Source: an uncultured Clostridia bacterium (lineage in GTDB: Bacteria; Bacillota; Dehalobacteriia; UBA4068; CALXSR01). From it: DNA of 64,000 bases. Both the position numbers and the translations under genes were made by a program. The notes below the pieces were generated by a model that searched no databases, was not told the origin of the DNA, and saw only the letters and a list, made by a program, of their open reading frames with translations. The DNA is taken from contig CALXSR010000015.1 in assembly GCA_944391215.1 (NCBI GenBank), positions 16,776-80,775 of the forward strand, read 5' to 3'. Positions 29,124 to 44,463 of this stretch are shown here, one piece after another; position 1 is the stretch's first letter, and the number at the start of each line of letters is the position of its first letter.

Positions 29124-29205
29124 TTCTAAAAGTTTAGAAAAACACTTGACAGCCTTATTCTATCATTATAGAATAAGGCTGTATTTATATTCTATAAAAA
29201 TAGAA
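29124..29205 (+). promoter_or_regulatory. blaI promoter with three palindromic operators
   Basis: TTGACA(29146)-17 bp-TAGAAT; TTCTA-N6-TAGAA at 29124, 29158, 29190. Confidence 0.75.
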
Positions 29206-29223
29206 AATGAAAGGTGGAAAAAC

Positions 29224-29595
29224 ATGGAACCGTTGACCAAGGCCGAATTTGAGTTAATGGAGGCAGTATGGCAAACCTCCATCCCAATTACCAGCAATCG
29301 AATCAAAGAAAATTTAGCCAACGGCAAGGCCTGGAAGGCTACCACCATTTTAACCCTACTAGGAAAATTGATTGATAAAAACTATATCCAAGCCCAAAAA
29401 CAAGGAAAGTTTTATGAATATACGATTTTAATTAGCAAAGAAGAGTATTTGCGGCAAGAAACACAGGGTTTTTTACAAAAGCTATACCAGGGTTCTTTAA
29501 AAAACATGCTAGCCACCTTGTATCGGGAAGATTCTTTAACAGAAACAGAAATTGCAGAAATGAAAGATTGGTTTGATCAGGAGGTGCTAAAATGA
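29224..29595 (+). CDS. BlaI/MecI/CopY-family repressor
   Basis: LTKAEFELMEAVW, WKATTILTLLGKL, LYQGSL. Confidence 0.92.
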   Translation: MEPLTKAEFELMEAVWQTSIPITSNRIKENLANGKAWKATTILTLLGKLIDKNYIQAQKQGKFYEYTILISKEEYLRQETQGFLQKLYQGSLKNMLATLYREDSLTETEIAEMKDWFDQEVLK

Positions 29596-31550
29596 GTCAA
29601 TTTATCCATACGCTCCTTTTTTTATCCGCTACCACCACCCTTTTTATTTTACCGCTGCTTTTGTTACGGAATTGGTTCTATAAAAAATACCATCCTTTTT
29701 TATTTTATAGCATTTGCCTGATCTTAGCCCTCCATTTACTTTTGCCTTACCAAATAAATATCAGCCAAATTGGTTTAAAACCAATCAATATTGCCGTTCC
29801 AACCAATATTACCATCGGACAAGAAAAAAATACAGCACCGTTGGTCTTAACAGAACCGGAACCAGAAACCGCCCGACTACAGCAGTCATTCCAAGTTGCT
29901 CAACCAATCCCATCGTCGGGCAGTCGTCATTTATCAGCGGTATCTCTTTGCCCTTTCCTTTTTTGTGTTTGGTTGGCAGGTTTTTTATCTTATCTATTGC
30001 AAATATTGCTTGCTTACCGCTATTTTTGCCGTCAACTACAACAAAACTTATCCCCGCTTGCGCCTTCGCTCCTCCCCCTATTACACAAATTACAATGGGA
30101 AATGGGCGTTTATAAGGAAATTACCATTTTACAAACCAGTTTACCGTTAGGCCCACTTCTTTATGGTTTTTGGCGGCCAAAAATTGTATTACCCAATCAA
30201 CCATTAAGTATCACAGAATATGAAATGATATTGCGTCATGAGTTAATGCATGCAAAGCATCACGATTTACTGGCAAAAGCAATGATGCAACTTGCTAACG
30301 CCGTACATTGGTTTAACCCCTTTGTATATTTCCTGACCAAGGAATGTAACAATGCTTGCGAGCATTATTGCGACCATAGCGTGCTGCAAGGACAGGATAA
30401 AAGCTATATCAAAGCTTATGGAGATACGATTTTAACCGTGATGCAACAGAATAAAAAGAAAACCTATGCCTTCACCACCCAGCTATCGGGCAACCAGAAA
30501 ACAATAAAAAAACGTTTTACCCATATGTTAGATAAAGCTCCTAAAAAAAGAGGGATTTTATGTTTTGTTCTTATACTTTGCCTCACCCTAGGTATTACTG
30601 CATGCGTAACTGTAAAACCAGATCATCCGCAGCAAGCACTGGAGCCAGAAAATACAATATCTGCTTCTTATGAAGAAACAATAAAAGCAATTTTAAACCG
30701 TAATTATCTCTCTATGGCAAAACTTTCTACTCCTTATGTAGGCGATCCGGTTGCGGTTGGCAAAGTATTATCCGCTACCCCATTAAATCCATATCGTATC
30801 AAAGGATTACAGATGCAAACCGCTCAACGCCCTTATCGCATCATATTGGATTTTTCTATGCCCCTTTCCTTACAACAGGATGAGATCATCAACGCCTTAG
30901 ACATTGCTACCGTTTTAGATTGTTTTGTTTTAATTGCTAATGTGGATCAAGTGGAATTAAACCATGCTTTTTTTGATGAGAAAGGGCAAGAAACAAAAGA
31001 AAAACGTACCACTCTTTTTAACCGGACCACAATCAATGGCTTATTGCAATGTAATGTGCAAAATTTAGCCAATGACCCCAATCGTTGGAAAAACCATTTA
31101 GAAAAATATTTAACCGGTAATATGGAACAATATGCGGTAATTGTCAGCGATTGCGAACTATTCCCCCAAAAAGGAACAACTGAAAACAGGCAATCGCAAT
31201 CTGACTCTATTCCATTAAAACAGGGTACTTTAGTGCAAATTTTAACTATAAATGAAACGGAGACGGAAGTGGCTTTATTCTTCACCGGCTCTCATGTCAC
31301 ACAGGGCTATGTCGCTAACGCCAATATTTCCACAAAATGGACTGACATCCTCACCTATGCCAAAGAAGGATATATAGACCAAAGCCCACTATACATCAAA
31401 AATGGCAACAAAATTAGCCCGTCCTTCACCCAAATAAGTGGGCAATATCGCATTTTAGAGGAAGAAAGCGATATGGTTTATGCCGAATTAAGCAATGGCA
31501 TGCGCGGTTGGCTTAAAAAAAGCGACTTAATCGTACCATTACCAAATTAA
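29592..31550 (+). CDS. BlaR1-like M56 metallopeptidase sensor with non-PBP C-terminal domain
   Basis: HELMH zinc motif, HWFNP, EHYCD; ATGA overlap with blaI; C-terminal TPYVGD (DUF4825-like). Confidence 0.88.
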   Translation: MSQFIHTLLFLSATTTLFILPLLLLRNWFYKKYHPFLFYSICLILALHLLLPYQINISQIGLKPINIAVPTNITIGQEKNTAPLVLTEPEPETARLQQSFQVAQPIPSSGSRHLSAVSLCPFLFCVWLAGFLSYLLQILLAYRYFCRQLQQNLSPLAPSLLPLLHKLQWEMGVYKEITILQTSLPLGPLLYGFWRPKIVLPNQPLSITEYEMILRHELMHAKHHDLLAKAMMQLANAVHWFNPFVYFLTKECNNACEHYCDHSVLQGQDKSYIKAYGDTILTVMQQNKKKTYAFTTQLSGNQKTIKKRFTHMLDKAPKKRGILCFVLILCLTLGITACVTVKPDHPQQALEPENTISASYEETIKAILNRNYLSMAKLSTPYVGDPVAVGKVLSATPLNPYRIKGLQMQTAQRPYRIILDFSMPLSLQQDEIINALDIATVLDCFVLIANVDQVELNHAFFDEKGQETKEKRTTLFNRTTINGLLQCNVQNLANDPNRWKNHLEKYLTGNMEQYAVIVSDCELFPQKGTTENRQSQSDSIPLKQGTLVQILTINETETEVALFFTGSHVTQGYVANANISTKWTDILTYAKEGYIDQSPLYIKNGNKISPSFTQISGQYRILEEESDMVYAELSNGMRGWLKKSDLIVPLPN

Positions 31551-31576: not shown

Positions 31577-32480
31577 TTATAAAAAAGATAAGAAGATACC
31601 TTGCAAACTATTATTTTGCAAACCAACTGCAATCCGCGGAGATAAATCCGCCGAAAATTGCAATAAATAATTTTGACTAACCGCATTTTGCATTCCCAAA
31701 AGTTCACTTACTTTTTGTGCCGCAATCTGCAACAAATCCATTCTTTGCGCCTGATTCAGCGGCTCTAAGCATCGTTTTATCCTTTCTCGCGCCCCTGTGC
31801 TAATATGCAAACCCCTGATATCCTCTTGCAATAAAACAAGGCCTATGGCGTTGGTAGCAACCGATTCATAAAGATTGATTAAAAGACCGCGATAATCCGG
31901 ACAATAACTTTGCCAAAGAGGAATCATGTGATCTACCCGAAAACGACATAATAAATCATTCTCTATCATCAGGTGTTTGAAATAAGCATTGATATAGTCG
32001 ATACCCAAATAATCATCTGGAATTGTTTGGCAAAGAGGATAATCAATTTGACAGGGTATTTCATGCGCAAAGAAAGTATCATCATATTGCCAAAAAAAGC
32101 ATAGATATTTTTTAAAGTATCCTGCAAAGCAATATTTTCTACTTTAGGCACACCAGAAGAAACCGTTTGCCATAGTTGTGTCCTCATTCTATTTTAGATG
32201 CAATTTCCTTTCTACCCAATTGATACTGTTCTTTAAGATATACTTATAGCCATTCTTTTTTTGGTTGCCAAAAGGGATCTGGCGGAATATGCAAAATATA
32301 ACAAAGCCCCCATAATAAATTTTGCACAATCTCCTTTGGTACTGAAGTACTTTCTCTCATCGTATAGCGCCTGGTTTGCCAAGCTAACAACCGATAGAAC
32401 TTTATTTGTCATAACAAAAATTCTTCCTCGGTAAAATCCGTTTGCTCCGGAAACAATTCCGATATGATATTTTCTGGCAA
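31577..32480 (-). pseudogene. Disrupted DUF6179-like gene
   Basis: AAGGAGG RBS + TTG 32480; TGA at codon 24; RYTMRESTSVP, LQDTLKNIYAFF and FFAHEIPCQIDYPL are separated by stops/frameshift. Confidence 0.65.
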
Positions 32481-32491
32481 ATTATTCCTCC

Positions 32492-32941
32492 TTATTTTCC
32501 ACACAAAGATCCTCGCCACGTAAAAAAACGGCATATTGCCTCTAAAGATGTTCCTGCTAAATATTCCACCGATCCCTGTCTTGCCCCATTAAAAACGGTT
32601 TGCATCGCAGTAATTAAGGCATCATCTGATAAATGTTCTAATGATTCCGTTTTATAATAATAAAACATCTTCTGTAAAGAAAACAAAGTCCCCTCATAAT
32701 TATTTTGCGACAGATGGAGAGAAGAACAAAAAGCAATAATCAATTTCTTTAAAATGCCATCACCAAATTCCATCCTGCCTGCATTTTGCAAAGCGCCCAA
32801 ACGATGCTCCAGCAAATTTCGTATTTGCTGATTTGACAACACCAGGCCAAATTTTTGACTCATTGCATTACAATCGGCAATTCCCTGTATCATTACGGTT
32901 ACCGGTTTAGAAAGAATGGTCCAAGCATTCCAGTCTTCCAT
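32492..32941 (-). CDS. DUF6323-like protein
   Basis: FGLVLS, GRMEFGDGILKKLI.AFC.S, FYYYKTES, SDDALI. Confidence 0.65.
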   Translation of the reverse strand: MEDWNAWTILSKPVTVMIQGIADCNAMSQKFGLVLSNQQIRNLLEHRLGALQNAGRMEFGDGILKKLIIAFCSSLHLSQNNYEGTLFSLQKMFYYYKTESLEHLSDDALITAMQTVFNGARQGSVEYLAGTSLEAICRFFTWRGSLCGK

Positions 32942-33103: not shown

Positions 33104-33132
33104 AAAAAAGCCTCTCAAACGAGAGGCTTTTT
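33104..33132 (-). terminator. Terminator of the nuo operon
   Basis: AAAAAAGCCTCTC-AAAC-GAGAGGCTTTTT about 35 bp after the second nuoM. Confidence 0.85.
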
Positions 33133-33167
33133 CGTATGGGTTCTTTTCCAAATTTTAATACTTGGTT

Positions 33168-34634
33168 TTACATCCCAAACAGGTGAAGAATCTGTCCTAC
33201 AATCGGGTCAAATACCGCCATTAAACCATTGGGCTGCAACCCGAAATAAATCGATAGTATTAACAAAATACCCATTGGCACCAATTCATAATAAGAACCG
33301 TCATGGATATGTCCTAATTCCGGGTTGGTTTCGCCAAAAGCAATTCTCTGAAAAGACCATAAATAATAAACAACCGCAATAATCATCCCTAATGCAACCA
33401 GGAAGGCAATATAGCGGAAGGCTTGCCATACGCCCATCAATACAGAAAACTCCCCAATGAAACCAACAAAGCCGGGTAACCCCATAGAAGCAAAAAAGGC
33501 TAATACAAATAAAGTCATGGCTTTTGGCATTTTACTATATAATCCGCTTAATTTAGAAATCAAACGCGTGCCACAAGAATGCTGGATAACGCCACACCCC
33601 ATAAAGAGCATTGCCGATACCAAACCATGCCCAACCATTTGGAAAATAGCCCCTTTGATACCAGGGGCAGTTAAACTGGCAACACCAATTAACACAAAGC
33701 CCATATGACTGATACTGGAATAAGCGATCATCTTCTTTAAATCATCCTGCGATAAAGCGACATAAGCGCCGTATACAATACTGAGCAAGGCCAAAATTAT
33801 CACCAACGGCGTGTATGCCTGCGCACCTTGCGGATTCATCATATAAGCGATACGAATGAGCCCATAACCACCCATTTTCAACAAAATACCAGCCAACAGA
33901 ACACTACCGCCAGTAGGCGCTTCTACGTGGGCATCCGGCAGCCAGGTATGGACTGGAATAACCGGCAATTTCACACAGAAGGCAAACAGCAAAGCGGGGA
34001 AAACCAGTAACTGGAACCCGGTGCTAAAGCCGGCTCCCATAATCTCCGGCATGGAAAATGTGAAATAGCCCAATAAATGAGAGGCCGCAAAAGCCATGGC
34101 CCCAATGGCTAAAAGCATTATTAAACTGGCCACATGGGTATAAATTAAAAACTTCATAGAAGCATAGCTACGGCGTGGACCACCCCAAATACCAATGATA
34201 AAAAACATCGGGATCAAAACAATTTCCCAGAAAATATAGAATAAGAAGAAATCTAAAGCAGAAAAAACACCTAAAACACCGGTTTCTAAAATCATCAATA
34301 AGGAGAAATATAAAGGCGCTCTTTCTTCCGTTTTCCAGGAAAAGATAACAACCAAGAAAACCAAAAGAGCCGTTAAAAGGAACAAAGGTAAACTTAACCC
34401 ATCTAAACCAACGGCAAAACTAACCCCAAAGGCAGGAAACCATTGATTTACTTGCCCCAACTGGTAACCTACACCAGTAAAATCAAATTGGAAGCAAGCA
34501 TAAATACCCAAAATAAGCGTAATCAAAGAACCAATAAAAGCCATAACCCTTGCCATGCCGTCGCTGTTTTTGCTGATAAAAATGGCCACGGTAGTAATTA
34601 AGGGGATTAACAGCATCCAGGTTATAATACTCAT
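33168..34634 (-). CDS. nuoM: Complex I antiporter-like subunit M, second copy (NuoM2)
   Basis: FWE, VKLPVIPVHTWLPDAHVEAPT, LLKMGGYG, SSISHMG, GFIGEF; AAGGAGG RBS, start 35 bp after nuoN stop. Confidence 0.93.
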   Translation of the reverse strand: MSIITWMLLIPLITTVAIFISKNSDGMARVMAFIGSLITLILGIYACFQFDFTGVGYQLGQVNQWFPAFGVSFAVGLDGLSLPLFLLTALLVFLVVIFSWKTEERAPLYFSLLMILETGVLGVFSALDFFLFYIFWEIVLIPMFFIIGIWGGPRRSYASMKFLIYTHVASLIMLLAIGAMAFAASHLLGYFTFSMPEIMGAGFSTGFQLLVFPALLFAFCVKLPVIPVHTWLPDAHVEAPTGGSVLLAGILLKMGGYGLIRIAYMMNPQGAQAYTPLVIILALLSIVYGAYVALSQDDLKKMIAYSSISHMGFVLIGVASLTAPGIKGAIFQMVGHGLVSAMLFMGCGVIQHSCGTRLISKLSGLYSKMPKAMTLFVLAFFASMGLPGFVGFIGEFSVLMGVWQAFRYIAFLVALGMIIAVVYYLWSFQRIAFGETNPELGHIHDGSYYELVPMGILLILSIYFGLQPNGLMAVFDPIVGQILHLFGM

Positions 34635-34669
34635 TGAACTACCTCCTTTAATAGAATCTCATTCCAAAA

Positions 34670-36118
34670 TTAAGGCAACAATATTGCGACGGCCGCCTGG
34701 CAAAGCATGAAAAGCTGATTGGGGAATAAACCCAAAAGAAGCAGCAAGCCAACACATATCGCAAGCGCCGTGGAATAAGAAACTATTTCTCCCCATTTTG
34801 CTTTCGGGGCAGTTTCCGCTGATGCCGGACTCATATACATGACTTTAATGAGTCGGGCATAATAAACCATAGAAAGGGCGCTGTTTAAAACAAGGATTAA
34901 AGCTAAAAGAATCATGCCGCCGCCCACTTCAAAGGCGGAAATGACAATCACCATTTTACTCCAAAAACCAAGCAAAGGCGGTACCCCTGCTAAGGACAAT
35001 AAAATAACGGAAAGGCCTAAAGCCAATAAGGGAACTGATTTACCCAAACCATGAAAAGATTGCAAGGAGTAATCTTGTTTCTTTTTACAAACCGCCTCAA
35101 TGCCAAAGAAAGCGCCAACAGCCATCAAACCATGGGCAACAATATGCATGATAGCGCCAGCTGCAGCCAAAGGCGTAAAGATCGCCAACCCAACCAAAAT
35201 ATTACCGGCATGCGCAATACTGGAGTAGGCCAACATCCTTTTCATATCATTTTGTACCAAAGCCACAATATTGCCAATCGTCATTGTTAAAGCAGCGATA
35301 ATAGCAAACAACAATATCACATGCAATTTAATCGCAATCAGCGTAGCCAAAAATAGTTTTAATACTACTACGAAAGCACCTTTTTTGGTAATCCCAGCTA
35401 AAAAAGCAGAAACTGGAGTCGGCGAACCTTCATAAGCATCTGGCGCCCAAAGGTGGAAAGGAACAATCGCCATTTTATAACCAAATCCAGCTAATAGGAA
35501 TATCATAGCCACAATTAAAATCGGCTGCAAAGTAGAAGCCTGTAAAACAGTGGCCACCACGCTTAATTGCACACTGCCCGTTAAACCATACAATAGCGAT
35601 AAGCCATATAAAATGAGGGCCGAAGAGAAAGCGCCTGTTACAAAATACTTAATAGCAGCTTCTTTCCCTTTTTCACTTTTTTGGTCAATAATGGGCAAAG
35701 CATAAGTCGAAATACTAACCAATTCAAAAGCCACAAATAAAGTGATGAAATCACCGGCGCTGCCCAAAAACATTAATCCCATGGTTGCAACCAATAACAA
35801 GCTAATATATTCTTTGGCAAAGCGCAAGTTTTGCAAATAGTTATAGGAACCCAATATGGTAATACCCGCTAGCACCAAAAAGATCAATTTCATCAATTCA
35901 CTAAAAGCATTGATTTCCATAGAGCCAAAAAGCATTACCGTATTCGCCCCGGTAAACAAAAACCAAACGGTACCTAAAAAAGATAAGCCAATCGCACCCA
36001 AGGCAAATACCATAGGTATGTTTTTACTAGCCCGCGGCAAAAGGAAAATAACAATCGCCACCAAAGCTAAAAGGATTTCCGGAGCAAAATACTGTAAATC
36101 AGAAGGCGTAATACCCAT
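34670..36118 (-). CDS. nuoN: Complex I subunit N
   Basis: PEILL, EAAIKYF, YKMAIVPFHLWAPDAYEGSPTP, KRMLAYSSIAH. Confidence 0.93.
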   Translation of the reverse strand: MGITPSDLQYFAPEILLALVAIVIFLLPRASKNIPMVFALGAIGLSFLGTVWFLFTGANTVMLFGSMEINAFSELMKLIFLVLAGITILGSYNYLQNLRFAKEYISLLLVATMGLMFLGSAGDFITLFVAFELVSISTYALPIIDQKSEKGKEAAIKYFVTGAFSSALILYGLSLLYGLTGSVQLSVVATVLQASTLQPILIVAMIFLLAGFGYKMAIVPFHLWAPDAYEGSPTPVSAFLAGITKKGAFVVVLKLFLATLIAIKLHVILLFAIIAALTMTIGNIVALVQNDMKRMLAYSSIAHAGNILVGLAIFTPLAAAGAIMHIVAHGLMAVGAFFGIEAVCKKKQDYSLQSFHGLGKSVPLLALGLSVILLSLAGVPPLLGFWSKMVIVISAFEVGGGMILLALILVLNSALSMVYYARLIKVMYMSPASAETAPKAKWGEIVSYSTALAICVGLLLLLGLFPNQLFMLCQAAVAILLP

Positions 36119-37602
36119 TAGAGAACACCTCCTAACAATTGCAAAATATATTGCGAACTCACATTAATCACATTTAAAATAGGAGCCGGGCAAATCCCAA
36201 AGAACAATACCAAAGCCCCTAGCACCGTTAAAGGAACGCTCTGATACCAAGTTAAATCATGCGGATGATGCACTTCCAGGGATTCCCGATAAGGACCAAA
36301 GAAAGCTCTTTGCAGGGCCCACAAATAATAAGCAGCCGTAATAACCAAAGAAATCATAGCTACCAAAGTAAGGGCCGGGTAAACGGAAAACGCTCCCAAA
36401 AATACCAGTAATTCCGCCACAAACCCCGCTAACAAGGGCAAACCTAAAGAGGCGAAGAAAGTGAATACGAAAAAGGTAGCCAAACGAGGTAAACGATTTG
36501 CCAAACCGCCCAATTCGGAAATTCTTCTGGTATGGAAAGTATGTTGTAAAATACCGCAAAGCATAAATAACATTGCTGAAATTAAGCCATGCGCAAACAT
36601 TTGATAAATGGCGCCATTGAAACCATTCACATTCATAACCGCCAAACCGAGTAAAACAGAACCCATATGGCTTACAGAAGAGTAGGCCACCATTTTTTTC
36701 ATATCGTCTTGTGCCAAAGCAAGGAAAGCGCCATACACCATACTAATAACCCCTAAAATAGCCATCGGTAAAGCATAATACTTGGCTGCTTCCGGCATTA
36801 AGCAAAAAGCAATACGAATTAAACCATAGCCGCCCATTTTTAATAATACCCCAGCCAAAAGAACACTACCGCCGGTAGGCGCTTCTACGTGGGCATCCGG
36901 TAACCAAGTGTGGAAAGGTACAACCGGAATTTTCACCGCAAAACCAAAGAATAAGGCTGGGAAGACCAAATACTGGAAGGAGCTAGCAAAGTGTACCTTT
37001 TGCATAATCTCTATCATGTTAAAGGTATAATATCCCAGCTCTCTGCCGGCTACAAAATACATAGCGATGATGCCCACCAGCATAATTAAACTGGCTACAT
37101 GTGTATAAACAAAAAACTTCAACGCCGCATAACGACGACGAGGACCGCCCCATTCGATAATTAAGAAATACATGGGTATTAAAACCAATTCCCAGAATAG
37201 ATAGAACAGGAAAAAGTCCAAACTCATGAAAACACCCAAGACACCCGTTTCCAAAAGCATTAACAGGGTAAAATAGGTTTTCGTTTTATGATCCACATCA
37301 AAAGAAAACAATGTCGTCAACGTGGTTAAAAGCGTAGTCAACATCACCAAAGGCATGCTTAACCCATCAATCCCCAAATAATAGCTGATACCGAAATCCT
37401 GAATCCAGGGAATCAATACCGAAAATTGCAGTTGGCTATTCGTCCAATCGAAACCAAGCAAAGCAAATACAGAAAGTACCAATGGAATTAAAGATACCGC
37501 AAAAGCAATCCATTTGGCTCTTTTGGTGGTGGTTCCGAATAAGAATACAAGCAATGCTGCTACCAATGGGGTAAAGAGAATGAATGTTAGCAAATGATTC
37601 AT
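36118..37602 (-). CDS. nuoM: Complex I subunit M, first copy (NuoM1)
   Basis: FWE, VKIPVVPFHTWLPDAHVEAPT, LLKMGGYG, GFVAEL; TAATG coupling to nuoL. Confidence 0.93.
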   Translation of the reverse strand: MNHLLTFILFTPLVAALLVFLFGTTTKRAKWIAFAVSLIPLVLSVFALLGFDWTNSQLQFSVLIPWIQDFGISYYLGIDGLSMPLVMLTTLLTTLTTLFSFDVDHKTKTYFTLLMLLETGVLGVFMSLDFFLFYLFWELVLIPMYFLIIEWGGPRRRYAALKFFVYTHVASLIMLVGIIAMYFVAGRELGYYTFNMIEIMQKVHFASSFQYLVFPALFFGFAVKIPVVPFHTWLPDAHVEAPTGGSVLLAGVLLKMGGYGLIRIAFCLMPEAAKYYALPMAILGVISMVYGAFLALAQDDMKKMVAYSSVSHMGSVLLGLAVMNVNGFNGAIYQMFAHGLISAMLFMLCGILQHTFHTRRISELGGLANRLPRLATFFVFTFFASLGLPLLAGFVAELLVFLGAFSVYPALTLVAMISLVITAAYYLWALQRAFFGPYRESLEVHHPHDLTWYQSVPLTVLGALVLFFGICPAPILNVINVSSQYILQLLGGVL

Positions 37603-39482
37603 TATAACAACCCTCCCCATACCAATGCAATCATAACGGTGACAGCCGCCGCAATGAGTAGCAAGTATTGTTGTAACTGCCCGGTAGAAGTTTTACGGAT
37701 TTCACTACCGCCAAAGACAAAACCGGAACAAATACCGCGTATAATCCCATCTACAATATAAATATCTACCCATTTTGCTGCTTTAGAAACCAGCAGGGTG
37801 ACATCACGAACAATATGGATAATACCGTCAATCACATGTTTATCGAAAAAGTCCGCTACTTTGGCAAGGCCAACTACAATATGATTACAAAACCAATTAT
37901 AAGCAGCATCAATATAGTAACGGTTAATCAATAAAGTACAAATACCTTTAAAGGTATTGGCAATTTTAGCGGCGCTAATTTTCTGCCAGCCATAAATAAC
38001 AGTCGCCAATAAAAATCCTAGCAGAGCGACTACAATGGAAATCATCATCACGGTATTGCTGCCATGTGCCATCGTTTCACCAGTAATAAAGCGCGCAATC
38101 GGTTTGCTAAATAAACCGGAAAAAGCAGCAAAGAAAGAAAGCACCACCAAAGGAATTAACATGGTTTTTCCGCAAGCATGACCATGTTTTTCCGTGCGCG
38201 GTTTGCCAGCAAATACCACATAATATAAACGGAACATATAAAATGCGGTTAAAAAGCTTGCTAAAAGCAAAATGCCACAAAAAATTGGATTTGCGTGCGC
38301 CGCACCAATTAAAATTTCGTCTTTACTCCAAAAACCGGATAAAGGCGGAATCCCAGCAATAGAAATGGTAGCAATTAAAACGGTAATAGCAGTAACTTTA
38401 TCCTTTTTCCAAACACCGCCCATTTCCCAAATATTATTGGTACCGGTAACGTGAATAACACAACCGGCTCCCAAAAAGAGCAATGCTTTAAAGAAAGCAT
38501 GGTTTATCAAATGTAAAATTGCACCCGCCATATTTAAAGTTCCCAAAGCTACCACCATAAAACCTAGCTGGCTTAAGGTGGAAAAAGCCAAAACCCGTTT
38601 AAAGTCCGTAGCCGTTAAGGCCATTAAAGCGGTGCCCAAGGCAGTAATTAAACCAATGATAACCATAAAATTCTGCGAAATAGGCGCTAAAACCAACAGG
38701 GGCATAAAACGAGCCATTAAATATATCCCGGCTTTTACCATGGTAGCAGCGTGAATTAAAGCAGAAACCGGCGTGGGCCCTTCCATAGCATCCGGTAACC
38801 AAACGTGCAGCGGAAATTGTGCCGATTTCCCAATTACCCCGCCAAACAAACCCAAGGTAGCAGCGGTAATCCAAAAAGGATCCATATTGGCTGCTGCGGC
38901 AAAAATTTCATGATATTGTAAAGAACCCGTTTGGGTATACAAAATCAAAATACCAATCAACATAAAAACGTCGCCCACTCTGGTGGTCAAAAACGCTTTT
39001 TTTGCAGCAGCAGCAGCAGATGGTTTATGAAACCAAAAGCCAATTAATAAGTAAGAGCACAGACCCATAATTTCCCAAAAAATGAAAGCCTGTAAAATAT
39101 TATCAGCAATGACTACGCCAAGCATAGAGAAAGTAAATAACTGGACTTCAGCAAAAAAGCGCATTAAACCGCCTTCCCCGTGCATGTAGCCATTGGCATA
39201 TAATAAAATGAAAGTTGCTAAAAAAGATACCAATAATAATAAGGTAATGGTAAGTGGATCCAGCATAAAGCCAAATTTAAAATTTAAAAACCAGGTAAAT
39301 TCCACTTGTTTTACCGTACCGGCAATCACATCAGGCAATACAGATAAACTCATGCAAAAAGAAGCGATGGTGCCCAACATACCCAAATAAGCGCTTTTCA
39401 AACCCAGCTTTTTGCCAAAAAGCAAGGTTAATATCATGGTAAATAAAACCGGCATCGGTATTAACCAAAAGTAGTCTATCAT
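37602..39482 (-). CDS. nuoL: Complex I subunit L with extended amphipathic helix
   Basis: FWEIMG, GKSAQFPLHVWLPDAMEGPTPVSALIHAATMV, NHAFFKALLF, GFWSKD. Confidence 0.95.
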   Translation of the reverse strand: MIDYFWLIPMPVLFTMILTLLFGKKLGLKSAYLGMLGTIASFCMSLSVLPDVIAGTVKQVEFTWFLNFKFGFMLDPLTITLLLLVSFLATFILLYANGYMHGEGGLMRFFAEVQLFTFSMLGVVIADNILQAFIFWEIMGLCSYLLIGFWFHKPSAAAAAKKAFLTTRVGDVFMLIGILILYTQTGSLQYHEIFAAAANMDPFWITAATLGLFGGVIGKSAQFPLHVWLPDAMEGPTPVSALIHAATMVKAGIYLMARFMPLLVLAPISQNFMVIIGLITALGTALMALTATDFKRVLAFSTLSQLGFMVVALGTLNMAGAILHLINHAFFKALLFLGAGCVIHVTGTNNIWEMGGVWKKDKVTAITVLIATISIAGIPPLSGFWSKDEILIGAAHANPIFCGILLLASFLTAFYMFRLYYVVFAGKPRTEKHGHACGKTMLIPLVVLSFFAAFSGLFSKPIARFITGETMAHGSNTVMMISIVVALLGFLLATVIYGWQKISAAKIANTFKGICTLLINRYYIDAAYNWFCNHIVVGLAKVADFFDKHVIDGIIHIVRDVTLLVSKAAKWVDIYIVDGIIRGICSGFVFGGSEIRKTSTGQLQQYLLLIAAAVTVMIALVWGGLL

Positions 39483-39511: not shown

Positions 39512-39826
39512 TTACCAGCGCAGCAGATTGAATTTGTCCAAATCCAAACTGCCTTTGCTGCGGTAAAGCGCAATGGCAATCGCTAAACCAATTGCAACTT
39601 CCGCCGCCGCAATGACGATGACGAAAATAGAGAAAATTTCGCCGGCGCCGTTGGAAAGAGGCAGAAATTTGCTAAAAGCCAGTAAATTGATATTCACTGC
39701 ATTAAGCATCAACTCAATCGAAAGTAGAATAGAAATGACATGCTTTTTGCCAATGGCTCCAAAAAGCCCAATCGCAAATAAAGCCGCTCCCAATAATAAA
39801 TAATGTGTTAAGCCAATTTCAAGCAT
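39512..39826 (-). CDS. nuoK: Complex I subunit K
   Basis: SIELMLNA, AAAEVAIGLA. Confidence 0.95.
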   Translation of the reverse strand: MLEIGLTHYLLLGAALFAIGLFGAIGKKHVISILLSIELMLNAVNINLLAFSKFLPLSNGAGEIFSIFVIVIAAAEVAIGLAIAIALYRSKGSLDLDKFNLLRW

Positions 39827-40325
39827 GGTCTTTCACCTCTCTCCCGATGATAATTGCCGCGACCATAGCCACCAAAAGCAAAACAGCCGCTAATTCAAAA
39901 GCAATCACATATTGTGAAAGAAGCCTTACCCCAATTTCGCCCACGGAAGTAGCAGCCGCCGCAATTCCTGTCGTTTGCCAAGTTGTTTTGATTAAAGAGA
40001 AGGATAAAAACCCAAAAAACAACATGGCCGCCGCTACGCCAAGATAGCCAAAACGGCTATAGGGATTGGTTTCCGCCATTTTGCCATCGCCTTGGTTCAC
40101 CAAAAGCAAAGCAAAAATGACCAAAATAGAAACTGCTCCAGCATAAACCAAAACCTGCACTGCTGCTAAAAAGTCGGCTCGCAGCGTTAGGAAAATGCCG
40201 GCAACACCTAAAAAAGTCACAATCAAGCATAAAACGCTATGTACAATATTTTTCAGGTTAATAACAGCCAAAGCGCCTCCCAAAGTGAGCGCTGCCAACA
40301 GGAAAAAAACAATACTCTGCATCAT
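39819..40325 (-). CDS. nuoJ: Complex I subunit J
   Basis: QVLVYAGAV, FELAAVLLL. Confidence 0.93.
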   Translation of the reverse strand: MMQSIVFFLLAALTLGGALAVINLKNIVHSVLCLIVTFLGVAGIFLTLRADFLAAVQVLVYAGAVSILVIFALLLVNQGDGKMAETNPYSRFGYLGVAAAMLFFGFLSFSLIKTTWQTTGIAAAATSVGEIGVRLLSQYVIAFELAAVLLLVAMVAAIIIGREVKDHA

Positions 40326-40891
40326 GCTTTTGTTTCCTCCCCTCTGTTTTCCGGTTCAGTCGCCTGCTTTTCAGCAGCCATTTTTTCTTCCGGCAAATTT
40401 TGTTTCTCCACAGGAGCCGCATTCACAACTTCTTTTTCTTCCTTTTTTTCTGCTGCCGGAGCTACCGGCATTTTCACTGGTTGCCCAAACGTGGAAGCTA
40501 CCGCGTCCATATTTGGGTTTTTCAACAAATCATGTACCACATTTTCTTTGTGATAAATCGCCGTTTCAAATTCCAAAGTAAATTTTAAACAATGCGTTGG
40601 ACATGTTTCTACGCATAAACCGCAATGCAAGCAATAAGAACGATTGATTTCGTATTTCATCATCTTCTTTTTGCCTTCTTCTGTTTTGCCAATTTCACAA
40701 GTAATGGCATGGTTCGGGCAAGCACGGGCGCATAAGCCGCAAGCAATGCATTTATCAACGTCCATTTGGAAATCGCCACGCCAGCATTTTGGCAAAACAG
40801 GTTTTACTTCGGGATATTTTTCCGTTAATCGTTTGCTAACGGAAGCTTTACCGGTAACGGCCAATCCTTTTATTAAACCTTTTCCGTACAT
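40322..40891 (-). CDS. nuoI: Complex I subunit I (2x 4Fe-4S) with low-complexity C-terminal tail
   Basis: TEKYP, CIACGLCARACP, CLHCGLCVETCP. Confidence 0.92.
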   Translation of the reverse strand: MYGKGLIKGLAVTGKASVSKRLTEKYPEVKPVLPKCWRGDFQMDVDKCIACGLCARACPNHAITCEIGKTEEGKKKMMKYEINRSYCLHCGLCVETCPTHCLKFTLEFETAIYHKENVVHDLLKNPNMDAVASTFGQPVKMPVAPAAEKKEEKEVVNAAPVEKQNLPEEKMAAEKQATEPENRGEETKA

Positions 40892-40893
40892 TG

Positions 40894-41958
40894 TTACCAC
40901 CCCAAACCATTATTAAATACAAACAAAACAATACTTGTAATAAGAATATTGGCCAAGGAAATCGGTACTAAAAACTTCCAGCCAAAATTCATCAACTGGT
41001 CTACCCGAATACGCGGGAAAGTCCAACGGCAGAAAATAAAGAAAGAGAATAAAACGAATGTTTTCCCCAAAAACCATACCCAACCAGGTAAAAACGGTCC
41101 TTGCCAACCGCCCAGAAAAACGGTAGTGCCAATGGAGGCAATCACAAACAAATTGCAATATTCAGCCAAAAAGAATAGCGCATAACGCATCCCGGAATAT
41201 TCGGTATAAATACCAGCCGTTAATTCCGATTCCCCTTCCGGTAAGTCGAAAGGCGCCCGATTAGTTTCAGCCAAACCGCAAATTAAATAAATAATAAAAG
41301 CCACCGGCTGTAAAAAAACAAACCAAATATGGTTTTGGGCCGCCACAATAGATTGCATTTCCAAAGTACCGGTAATTAGTACCACGCCCAATAAAGAAAA
41401 CACCATGGGGATTTCATAACTAATCATTTGCGATACCCCACGCATAGCACCCATCAAGGAATATTTATTATTGGACCCCCAACCAGCCATAAAAATAGGG
41501 ATAGTGGAAAGCGCGGATACCGCAATTAAATAGAACAGGCCAATACTCAAATCTAGCGCCGCCATTTGCCGGCCAAATGGGATTACCGCTAAAGAAAGCA
41601 TCGGCGGTACAAAAATCAACAAAGCAGCCCATAAATGTACGACCCGATCGGCGTTTAAAGGCACTACATCTTCTTTGGTCAACAATTTAATCGCATCGGC
41701 AATGGTTTGGAACCAACCATTGGGACCCAAGCGATTCGGACCGGGGCGTCTTTGAATATACCCTGCCAATTTTCTTTCCCATATTACATAGAAAAGGGCA
41801 CATAAAACGCAAACAGCAATGATTGCAATAAAATAAACCAAACCCATACCAATTTCTGTAACAGTTGCATTAAAGCCTAGCCAGGCAAAGAAATGACGGA
41901 TAAGACCCGCTATGTAGAGAAAAATATTATCAAAAAATTCTAGTATATTACTCAACAT
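40894..41958 (-). CDS. nuoH: Complex I subunit H
   Basis: ERKLAGYIQRRPGPNR, QMISYE, NRAPFDLPEGESEL. Confidence 0.95.
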   Translation of the reverse strand: MLSNILEFFDNIFLYIAGLIRHFFAWLGFNATVTEIGMGLVYFIAIIAVCVLCALFYVIWERKLAGYIQRRPGPNRLGPNGWFQTIADAIKLLTKEDVVPLNADRVVHLWAALLIFVPPMLSLAVIPFGRQMAALDLSIGLFYLIAVSALSTIPIFMAGWGSNNKYSLMGAMRGVSQMISYEIPMVFSLLGVVLITGTLEMQSIVAAQNHIWFVFLQPVAFIIYLICGLAETNRAPFDLPEGESELTAGIYTEYSGMRYALFFLAEYCNLFVIASIGTTVFLGGWQGPFLPGWVWFLGKTFVLFSFFIFCRWTFPRIRVDQLMNFGWKFLVPISLANILITSIVLFVFNNGLGW

Positions 41959-41975
41959 ACTTCCCCTCCTTCCGA

Positions 41976-43082
41976 CTAAGCGTCAATTTCGCCTAATACA
42001 ATATCAAAACTGGCCAAAATTGCAACCAAATCAGCCATTTTATGGCCGATAAATATTTCATCATAAATCGCGATATTGGAAAAAGACGGCCGTCTAAAAT
42101 GAACCCGATAAGGATTGGTACTGCCATCGCTGGCCACATAGCAGCCAAGAATTCCCTTTGGATTTTCCGCTTCATGATAAGCATCGCCAACCGGCGGTTT
42201 GATTACTTTTGGGACTTTAGCCATAATTGGCCCTTCCGGAATATCCTGAATAAATTGCTGGATAAGACGGAAGCTTTCTTCCACTTCTTTCATTCGTACC
42301 ATATAACGATCATAACAATCACCGTGTTCGGTGGTGGCCACATTGATTTGATATTTGCCATACTGCAAATAAGGACGATCGCGTCTTAGATCATAATCAA
42401 CCCCACTAGCTCGTAAATTAGGGCCAGTTAAACCATAATTTAAAGCTTTTTCCGCCGTAATTTTGCCAATACCTTTGGTACGAGCATGGAAAATTTCATT
42501 ATCATCAACGAGAGTATGATATTGTTTAATGAAAGCAGGACATTCCTTTAAAAACGCTTCATAATGTTTAAAGAAATCCTCATTCAAATCTGCGGCAACC
42601 CCACCAATACGAATATAATTAAATGTCATACGGGCCCCACATAACTGGGAAAGCATTTCTAAAACGCGTTCCCGTAATTGGAAAGGATAAAAAGCGCCTG
42701 TTACCGCCCCTAAGTCCATAATATAAATACCAATCCCAACCATATGGCTGGCAATACGCATCAATTCCGCTGTAATCATCCGAATATATTGCGCACGTTC
42801 CGGTACCTCAACCCCCATCAGCTTTTCTACCGCCAAAACATAAGCCAAATTATTGCTGATGCCGGACAAATAATCCAAACGATCCGTATAGGGAATGACT
42901 TGCGGATACGTTCTGCTTTCCGCTAATTTTTCAATGCCGCGGTGCAAATAGCCGATTTTGGTTTTCGAGGCAACGCAATATTCGCCGTCCATCTCCACCA
43001 CAACATGAAGAACCCCGTGCGTACTGGGGTGCTGCGGACCTAAATTTAAAGTATAGGTTTGTGTTTTAACAGCATCACTCAT
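41976..43082 (-). CDS. nuoD: Complex I subunit D
   Basis: LNLGPQHPSTHGVL, GYLHRGIEK, DRLDY, DIVLGEID; no NiFe CxxC motifs. Confidence 0.95.
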   Translation of the reverse strand: MSDAVKTQTYTLNLGPQHPSTHGVLHVVVEMDGEYCVASKTKIGYLHRGIEKLAESRTYPQVIPYTDRLDYLSGISNNLAYVLAVEKLMGVEVPERAQYIRMITAELMRIASHMVGIGIYIMDLGAVTGAFYPFQLRERVLEMLSQLCGARMTFNYIRIGGVAADLNEDFFKHYEAFLKECPAFIKQYHTLVDDNEIFHARTKGIGKITAEKALNYGLTGPNLRASGVDYDLRRDRPYLQYGKYQINVATTEHGDCYDRYMVRMKEVEESFRLIQQFIQDIPEGPIMAKVPKVIKPPVGDAYHEAENPKGILGCYVASDGSTNPYRVHFRRPSFSNIAIYDEIFIGHKMADLVAILASFDIVLGEIDA

Positions 43083-43537
43083 TGTGGTTTCGCCCCCATT
43101 CTATTATGGTGATCATTCACAAAATCTTTGCGCAAGGGATAACCGTCAAAGCCTTCCCAAAGCAAAATACGCTCTAAATTGGGATGATTTAAAAAAGTGA
43201 TGCCCATCAAATCATAAACTTCTCTCTCTAGCCAGTTAGCCGAACACCACAAGTTTGCCAAAGATTCTATTTCCGGTTTTTCATGATCTAATTTTACCTT
43301 AATGGTAAAATGTTCCCCACTAGCATGGTCAAAGAGTTGATAAACCACTTCAAAATACTCTTTTGCATCTACCGAGGTTATATCAGATAATAAATCCATG
43401 CCCATGCGTTTTAAATAAGACATAATTTCTAAAAAGTTTTCTTTTTCAACCCAAAACTCTTCTGCTTTTTCTTCCGAAAAAGTTACTTTATCCGCATAAT
43501 GCTTCAATAAAGATTCTTTATAATTGGTCGCCATCAT
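43079..43537 (-). CDS. nuoC: Complex I subunit C
   Basis: ANWLEREVYDLMG, HPNLERIL, YPLRKDF. Confidence 0.93.
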   Translation of the reverse strand: MMATNYKESLLKHYADKVTFSEEKAEEFWVEKENFLEIMSYLKRMGMDLLSDITSVDAKEYFEVVYQLFDHASGEHFTIKVKLDHEKPEIESLANLWCSANWLEREVYDLMGITFLNHPNLERILLWEGFDGYPLRKDFVNDHHNRMGAKPQ

Positions 43538-43549
43538 TACCCCTCCTTT

Positions 43550-44077
43550 TTATTCATGTGTTTTCACAATTTCCGGATGGTTTAATTTTTGTTTTAATTG
43601 CAATAAACCATGAATTAACGCTTCCGGACGCGGAGGGCAGCCCGGAATATAAATATCTACCGGAACAATTTGATCGGCGCCTGGTACAACAGAATAGGAG
43701 TCCACAAAAGGGCCGCCAGAAATTGCACAATTTCCCATGGCAATGACCCAACGCGGCTCCGGCATTTGATGATAAAGCAATTCCACGGAAGGACGCATTT
43801 TTTCTGTAATCGTACCAGCCACAATCATCACATCGGCTTGCCGCGGCGAGTTACGAAACACTTCATATCCAAAACGCGAACAGTCAAAACGAGATTGCGT
43901 CATACAAATCATTTCAATAGCACAACAAGCTAAGCCAAATTGAAAAGGCCATAAGGACCAACCGCGGCCCCAATTAAACAATTTTTCCAAGGTAGTGAAA
44001 AGAATTCCTTTCTTTTCCAATTCTTCTTGACTCATCAAATCGGTATTGTCCGGAATTTTATTTTCTTTTACTGCCAT
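43550..44077 (-). CDS. nuoB: Complex I subunit B
   Basis: [30 protein letters not shown]. Confidence 0.95.
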
Positions 44078-44463
44078 TTTAGCACTCCTTCCTTCCAGGC
44101 ATACCACAGACCAGCTACTAAAATTGCGATGAAAATCAACATTTCAATGAGACCAAAAAGGCCCAAGGCATGAAAAGCTACTGCCCATGGATATAAGAAA
44201 ACCGTTTCCACATCGAAAATTAAGAAAATCAAAGCGTAGAGAAAATAGCTTGTTTTATACCGTACCCAAGTAGTACCTTCCGTTAGCATACCGCATTCAT
44301 ACGTAATCCTTTTACGGTCATAGGGTCTGTGAGGAGCAAATATACGCGAAATAATCAAGGCTGCGGCCGCAAATGCAATCGCCCCAACAAACATAATGCC
44401 CACGATACCATACTGTACCAAAAAGTCTACTCCGCTTACTGGATCTGTCATTTTCCTTGCCAT
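44068..44463 (-). CDS. nuoA: Complex I subunit A
   Basis: [25 protein letters not shown]. Confidence 0.95.

Follow-up and report, generated by a model that had tools for sequence, protein, structure and literature searches.

A tandemly duplicated module in the NuoL lateral helix and a second NuoM-type gene in a complex-I-type operon of a gut Bacillota lineage

Does a lengthened lateral helix in NuoL, encoded in the same operon as a second nuoM-type gene, indicate that four antiporter-like pumps are assembled into one complex I? The question is raised by a locus of an uncultured Clostridia bacterium, which lies in a stretch of 64,000 nucleotides that we analyzed as a whole and call the window. 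According to Belevich et al. 2011, TM15 and TM16 anchor the lateral helix (HL) at either end of the membrane arm, and a piston role is argued against, and for these two reasons we refer to the helix as a strap. We ask how the helix became long, how its length relates to the number of pump genes in relatives, and what this says about the second NuoM.

The operon and its second nuoM

The operon reads nuoABCDHIJKL-M1-N-M2, head to tail throughout and on the minus strand of the window, and it holds an 11-subunit complex-I-type set plus a twelfth gene, nuoM2. Upstream of nuoL lie eight genes, nuoA, B, C, D, H, I, J and K (39512..44463), which were assigned by Pfam matches above the curated cut-offs (Oxidored_q4, q6, Complex1_30kDa, Complex1_49kDa, NADHdh, Fer4, Oxidored_q3 and q2). 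They are followed by four genes with PF00361 matches: nuoL (37602..39482; 626 aa, P0001), with PF00361 at E 1e-81 and also PF00662; nuoM1 (36118..37620; 500 aa, P0002); nuoN (34670..36118; 482 aa, P0003), which has a lysine at the TM12 position, as E. coli NuoN has in K395; and nuoM2 (33168..34634; 488 aa, P0004), which encodes the second M-type pump subunit. A consensus scan places the strongest terminator-like site of the region, a hairpin of 13 pairs with a T run (33104..33133, minus strand), 35 nt past the nuoM2 stop, and finds none in the 35 nt that separate nuoN from nuoM2.

By Pfam, nuoE, nuoF and nuoG are absent from the nuo cluster, which therefore falls short of the 14-subunit NADH:quinone oxidoreductase. 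Because these three genes are missing, the electron donor is probably not directly bound NADH. The host assembly (1.79 Mb in 53 contigs, 92.8% complete) contains a single PF01512 gene, outside the cluster on contig C16, and one UbiA-family gene; no match to cytochrome bd was found in the whole assembly. A second cluster of three PF00361 genes, with open frames of 503, 512 and 575 aa, lies elsewhere in the same genome (contig C8, 17977-22324), and similar trios are present in other families of the order.

M2 shares 51% identity with M1 and 38% with E. coli NuoM. With positions taken from the E. coli K-12 sequence, M1 carries equivalents of E144, K234, K265, H322, H348 and E407, which we take from the E. 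coli literature to be the functional set of NuoM, and the corresponding residues of M2 are E137, K222, K253, H310, H336 and the M-specific E395. Four of these, E137, K222, K253 and E395, make up what is presumably the hallmark of a NuoM, namely a glutamate in TM5, lysines in TM7 and TM8, and a glutamate replacing lysine at TM12. Judged by these residues, M2 is an intact M-type channel. Its orthologues are present in all nine same-order loci that are fully covered.

Structure prediction of M1 together with M2 gave a score of 0.51, against 0.00 for the best of three controls, which amounts to weak support for a contact. Of 157 solved complexes, 116 attained the mark used, as did 2 of 215 mismatched pairs, but scores of 0.60 or less include only 18 of the 157 solved complexes and both of the mismatches that passed. 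The runs share at least 96% of their contacts, with a partner pLDDT of at least 85. Because neighboring antiporter-like subunits have been solved many times, the pass may only reflect the likeness of M1 and M2 to such pairs.

Several observations concern the surroundings of the operon. Directly downstream of its terminator-like site lie genes for DUF6323 and DUF6179 (31577-32941, minus strand). They were considered as extra subunits of the complex and were dropped because tblastn gave no match in the loci of 13 relatives, which reach about 0.5-5 kb past M2, except for two that end before M2. Further on is an ordinary regulator pair, a Penicillinase_R repressor gene followed by a gene for a BlaR1-type Peptidase_M56 sensor (29146-31550, plus strand). 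At least half of the sampled words of 33168-39482 are present in four public DNA runs from three studies, labeled chicken gut or gut metagenome, and no RNA run is among the public runs listed for this stretch.

The lateral helix of NuoL

The C-terminus of NuoL, read from the minus strand, is ...ADFFDKHVIDGIIHIVRDVTLLVSKAAKWVDIYIVDGIIRGICSGFVFGGSEIRKTSTGQLQQY... and contains FFDKHVIDGII (residues 545-555, 37850-37818) and WVDIYIVDGII (residues 571-581, 37772-37740). The two motifs are 78 nt, or exactly 26 codons, apart, in full agreement with the original prediction. They open two modules of 26 residues each, of which module 1 (residues 545-570, 37773..37850, minus strand) is located by sequence and profile match and module 2, its tandem copy (residues 571-596, 37695..37772, minus strand), by sequence and by hhalign to module 1. 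Both lie within HL (residues 522-598, 37689..37919, minus strand), which DSSP on an AF2 model predicts to be one unbroken helix of 77 residues. The TGQLQQY motif follows, and then the TM16 anchor helix (residues 604-625 in the AF2 model, 37608..37673, minus strand).

Two similar motifs might recur by chance in a hydrophobic helix, and the window NuoL taken alone gives little reason to think otherwise. In register, its modules agree at 5 of 26 residues and at 33 of 78 bases. Because up to 6 identities are reached at other offsets from 10 to 44, the single sequence is not above chance. Across 82 two-module homologues (alignment A2), in contrast, the mean identity is 8.07 of 26 at offset 26 and stays at 0.9-3.1 for all remaining offsets between 10 and 44. 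In register, hhalign matches the module 1 profile to the module 2 profile (probability 98.5%, E 2.1e-15), whereas the helix segments flanking the modules, used as a control, match neither (E 0.035 to 0.51). Either copy can be aligned with solved one-module NdhF chains, module 1 with the chloroplast NdhF and module 2 with 6tjv_F; a search with the C-terminal 146 residues, which returned 4 chains at E up to 1, gave no solved chain that matches both. Together with the stepwise helix lengths described below, these comparisons refute chance recurrence, and the insertion is a true, and old, tandem duplication of one 26-residue module. We rejected the further idea that repeated modules also make up the canonical helix, because its flanking segments fail to match the module profiles.

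Conservation in A2 is strongest at D552, D573, D578 and G579, which are invariant, with D547 kept in at least 90% of the sequences; near TM16, G601 and Y606 are invariant and Q604 is kept in at least 90%. Among 122 one-module sequences, a single strict D-x4-[DE]G motif is present in 82 and none in the other 40; two are never present. The prediction that a canonical NuoL has one D-x4-DG motif thus holds in the sense that no one-module NuoL here has a second strict copy. E. coli D563 falls within the region aligned to the module, with uncertain equivalence; a 2012 paper by Steimle et al. reportedly concerns, by its title, Asp563 of the NuoL helix.

We measured the span of the helix from the conserved aspartate after TM15 (D525) to the glycine before TM16 (G601). 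It is 76 residues in the window NuoL, compared with 47 in that of E. coli K-12 and 50-52 in nine further one-module NuoLs aligned with them. The check proposed at the outset, an alignment with E. coli and single-M relatives, accordingly gave a net insertion of 26 residues in the lateral helix. Because the module is duplicated in tandem, the strap is 26 residues longer than that of one-module enzymes, or about 39 Å if helical at 1.5 Å per residue. Over 216 NuoL sequences (the window, E. coli, 11 same-order loci, loci from genome and metagenome contigs, 30 Zixibacteriota loci and 22 database proteins, leaving out loci with a NuoL open frame under 560 aa), spans fall into three classes, with 47-52 residues in 122 (E. 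coli at 47 and 121 one-module relatives at 49-52), 76-86 in 89 and 102-103 in 5. Such sharp quantization points to a structural constraint that, as far as the sequences tell, acts on whole modules.

The AF2 model of NuoL, built from the 82-row alignment, has a mean pLDDT of 84.4. It contains a helix at 476-498, then HL, continuous from 522 to 598, and then TM16. The helix length was also to be checked in a predicted structure, and there it indeed comes out unbroken, at a moderate confidence over HL (block pLDDT 58-77). The protein has the Proton_antipo_N and Proton_antipo_M domains and the C-terminal TM15-HL-TM16 extension of the NuoL/ND5/NdhF family, and Foldseek matches its model to chains of NdhF, NuoL and ND5 at E 2e-33 and weaker, with a TM of about 0.8. 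Among the 50 matches listed, rmsd values are about 11-12 Å for full-length matches, compared with 3.7-4.6 Å for 8qc1_L and 7aqw_L; this pattern fits a displaced TM16 in the model, and we do not count it as evidence.

Module number and pump-gene number

A NuoL of the window's type is found in 12 of 51 genomes of the same order. Eleven orthologous loci were fetched (53-64% identity), of which nine read L-M1-N-M2 and two are cut off by the end of a contig, within nuoN or shortly past it. Among relatives with a name, the nearest, at 57% identity, is a 'Bacillota bacterium' genome from goat cecum. One orthologous same-order nuoL (G032:C131:4300-6177, L008/L037) has an in-frame TGA; that genome is 81% complete, so either gene breakage or faulty assembly may account for it.

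Distinct four-pump operons number 14 in our sample, namely the window, the nine same-order genomes, L134, L099, L111 and L121. All 14 have a lengthened helix, with two or three modules, and they belong to two separate clades. Among loci with at least 1.5 kb of sequence past both ends of the pump-gene cluster, which we count here as fully covered, two modules occur with four pump genes in four (the window, L042, L099 and L121, where L042 and L038, which belongs to the nine same-order loci, are one contig), and one module occurs with three pump genes in 54 and with one or two in nine. No genuine one-module operon with four pump genes was found, the sole such row (L064) being an overlapping-frame artifact.

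The converse does not hold, since the long helix also occurs without a fourth pump gene. Sixteen fully covered loci combine two modules with three pump genes, L-M-N (L043, L054, L069, L086, L096, L120, L151, L187, L190-L192, L200, L201, L207, L212 and L213). They include redundant metagenome contigs, with L190 and L191 identical and L192 and L200 near-identical, and they span at least six lineages, among them Zixibacteriota, Ignavibacteria/Melioribacter, Acidobacteriaceae, a planctomycete-like group and Actinomarina. Their NuoLs are about 45% identical to that of the window and often 691-837 aa long, and in some a further hydrophobic stretch follows TM16 at the C-terminus. A whole-genome search with PF00361 in ten genomes of this kind (G041-G045, G068, G072, G089, G100 and G105) found no spare pump gene in nine. 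Two L-M-N triplets and Mrp-like pairs are all that eight of the ten contain, and G105 has one triplet and one pair cut by a short contig. In G045 a spare M is possible because three further PF00361 genes are scattered over the genome. In Zixibacteriota, two modules are present in all 30 loci fetched, and no fourth pump gene lies next to L-M-N in the five genomes checked. A database search returned 121 NuoL-type proteins, with two cores 26 residues apart in 113 and 27 apart in one, three cores (26+26) in four, one core in two, and one protein truncated; because these are the highest-ranked proteins by similarity to a two-module query, they overstate the frequency of two modules.

Helix length can also exceed the gene count in operons with four pump genes. 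Three-module NuoLs (P0021, P0047, P0048, P0049 and L134:3654-5621) have spans of 102-103 residues and lengths of 655-656 aa, and on the NuoL tree they arose at least twice within the window's clade. The one in L134, which belongs to that clade, is nearly identical to P0049, and its operon is complete, with L-M-N-M2 only and then an ORF on the opposite strand. No three-module NuoL was found in the window's own order, where the best identity is 54%.

The NuoL trees were built on the core only, with the helix columns excluded, by FastTree on 134 of the 216 rows (26 Zixibacteriota loci and the one-module metagenome loci were dropped) and by a quick IQ-TREE run under LG+C20 on 57 hand-picked rows. 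Both are quick trees with poorly resolved backbones and open forks. The window's clade, with two or three modules and L-M-N-M wherever the context is known, has a support of 100 in both. Its sister is a group of archaeal-type loci with one module and L-M-N (Ethanoperedens, Thermoplasmata and Methanobacteriota; L046, L058 and L068), with a support of 99 in FastTree and 98 in IQ-TREE. In a tree of 106 M sequences, M1 forms a clade with a support of 98 and M2 one with 100, and both join three M proteins of the sister group in a single clade (100), within which the branching order of M1, M2 and the sister-group M is open. Because one module and L-M-N characterize the sister group, the simplest reading of these trees places the M1/M2 duplication and the helix duplication on the same stem, that of the window's clade. 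The helix duplication could predate that stem, because P0058, a two-module protein without known context, sits in the sister group. That the nearest outgroup of both the window NuoL and the window NuoM consists of archaeal records (L046, L058 and L068) hints, on tree position, at transfer between domains.

It had been argued that the repeat, roughly as long as one antiporter subunit is wide, is independent evidence that M2 is physically incorporated. This part of the original prediction is not supported, because the same repeat occurs with only L-M-N in the 16 loci above. The three-module NuoL beside L-M-N-M2 in L134 speaks against it as well. Its occurrence in relatives with one nuoM had been named as what would undo the argument, and it was found, but in distant relatives; the counter-example of L134 differs in carrying an additional module, and within the window's own clade, no relative with one nuoM was found. 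What stands of the earlier interpretation is the net insertion itself and, on the simplest reading, a helix duplication on the same stem as that of nuoM. The long helix is present in all four-pump operons of our sample and, by these counts, is insufficient alone to call one; because it also occurs where there is no fourth pump gene, helix length is unusable by itself for calling extra pumps.

A proposed four-pump arm, its rivals and known systems

We consider it somewhat probable, at roughly 0.6, that the long strap and M2 together represent the published 2M design, with four pumps (L, two M and N) in one complex. An ancestor duplicated one 26-residue HL module in tandem, on what the trees most simply give as the stem branch of the nuoM duplication too, and the longer strap would allow TM16 still to reach its proximal docking place across four antiporter-like subunits. 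Such an arm would move a fifth proton per two electrons, a higher H+/2e- ratio, as has been proposed for 2M complex I.

The 2M design does not follow from the helix, however, which might instead be an inherited or otherwise used trait unrelated to M2, with M2 added independently or not at all. The 16 single-nuoM loci with two modules fit such an unrelated strap, and so do the Zixibacteriota, where all 30 loci have two modules and none of the five genomes checked has an adjoining fourth pump gene. A three-module helix beside only four pump genes fits it as well, and the poorly resolved NuoL backbone makes a single old origin of the two-module form possible. Against it, the nearest outgroup in our sample whose context is known combines one module with L-M-N, all 14 four-pump operons, in two clades, have a lengthened helix, and the sharp steps in span point to a constraint on whole modules. 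On balance we regard this explanation as unlikely. A different doubt concerns M2 itself, which could be a separate cation/proton antiporter-like protein, or serve another partner, and share only the transcript with complex I. The weak support from the M1 and M2 prediction leaves room for this, as does the presence of another PF00361 trio on contig C8. Yet M2 closes the operon and no terminator-like site precedes it, it is kept at the same place in all nine fully covered same-order relatives and in L134, it retains the M-specific TM12 glutamate, and it is a paralogue of M1 within the lineage; we therefore think a place outside complex I very unlikely.

There is a bolder variant of the 2M design, in which each HL module is the docking unit for one antiporter-like subunit, and the number of modules rather than of genes gives the number of pumps. 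We hold this to be rather improbable. If true, operons with more modules than genes, that is, the two-module L-M-N operons of many phyla and the three-module L-M-N-M2 operons of the window's clade, would incorporate the same NuoM twice. Relatives of the window operon would then be five-pump machines, and complex I variants moving five or six protons would be far commoner than gene counts suggest. Whichever reading applies, helix length changes in steps of about 26 residues and can exceed the gene count even in close relatives, which calls for caution in its use.

The four-pump reading of the window is best judged beside the systems already described. Canonical NuoL, Nqo12, ND5 and NdhF of solved complex I and NDH-1 structures (for example 3rko, 4he8, 6hum and 7z7s) have the same fold, the same TM15-HL-TM16 layout and the same TM5 Glu, TM7 Lys and TM12 Lys as the window NuoL, and they differ from it in having one module only. 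The single-nuoM systems with a long strap found here share with it the two 26-residue modules, their spacing and, in most, the span of 76, and they have only L-M-N in the operon. The same is described by Yu et al. 2022 (PMC9040806), where the insertion is present in the three-pump Complex_I_1 and Complex_I_2 of 'Ca. Manganitrophaceae'; a literature search on NuoL helix duplication together with NuoM found only the Manganitrophaceae preprint.

The 2M complex I itself was described for Nitrospira (CI_1) by Chadwick, Hemp, Fischer and Orphan (2018, ISME J 12:2668), a paper that we know through PMC6606698, PMC9040806, PMC7117926 and PMC7419157. In the passages of PMC6606698 and PMC9040806 that define it, a 2M complex has an elongated NuoL together with another NuoM, in line with the original statement that such complexes have insertions in the NuoL helix; the argument from a long NuoL and a second NuoM is, by the same passages, already a published one. 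The window has both features, a second nuoM-type gene (M1 and M2 both match PF00361 and both have the M-specific TM12 Glu) and a NuoL lateral helix about 26 residues longer than usual (span 76 versus 47-52). Our literature search found no account of a Bacillota 2M complex or of a tandem-repeat insertion, with the limit that Chadwick et al. may bear on both.

In the Chloroflexota 2M loci (nuoL-M1-M2-N in PMC7117926; L099, L111 and L121 here), four antiporter-like genes and a lengthened helix are present as in the window. Unlike the window, these loci are ordered L-M-M-N, have spans of 77-79 instead of 76 and carry a degenerate second motif (e.g. DIPVITG). The Chloroflexota 2M form is probably of independent origin because it is a separate clade in the NuoL trees. 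As the citing papers describe it, Nitrospira CI_1 is like the window in its second NuoM, its helix longer by about 26 residues, the lack of nuoE and nuoF in the cluster, and the four pumps and fifth proton proposed for it. The clade-3 cluster of Nitrospira, in the description of PMC6606698, lacks nuoH and has an enlarged nuoG, whereas the window has nuoH and no nuoG. The window's host, moreover, is a gut member of the Bacillota with a small genome and the order L-M1-N-M2, and its NuoL and M proteins group with archaeal-type sequences in trees that hold four Nitrospirota rows, all with one module, and no two-module or 2M Nitrospira sequence. To the known four-pump design, the locus thus adds a gut Bacillota lineage with the order L-M1-N-M2 whose NuoL and NuoM are nearest to archaeal types, and it identifies the insertion in the strap as a true tandem duplication of one module.
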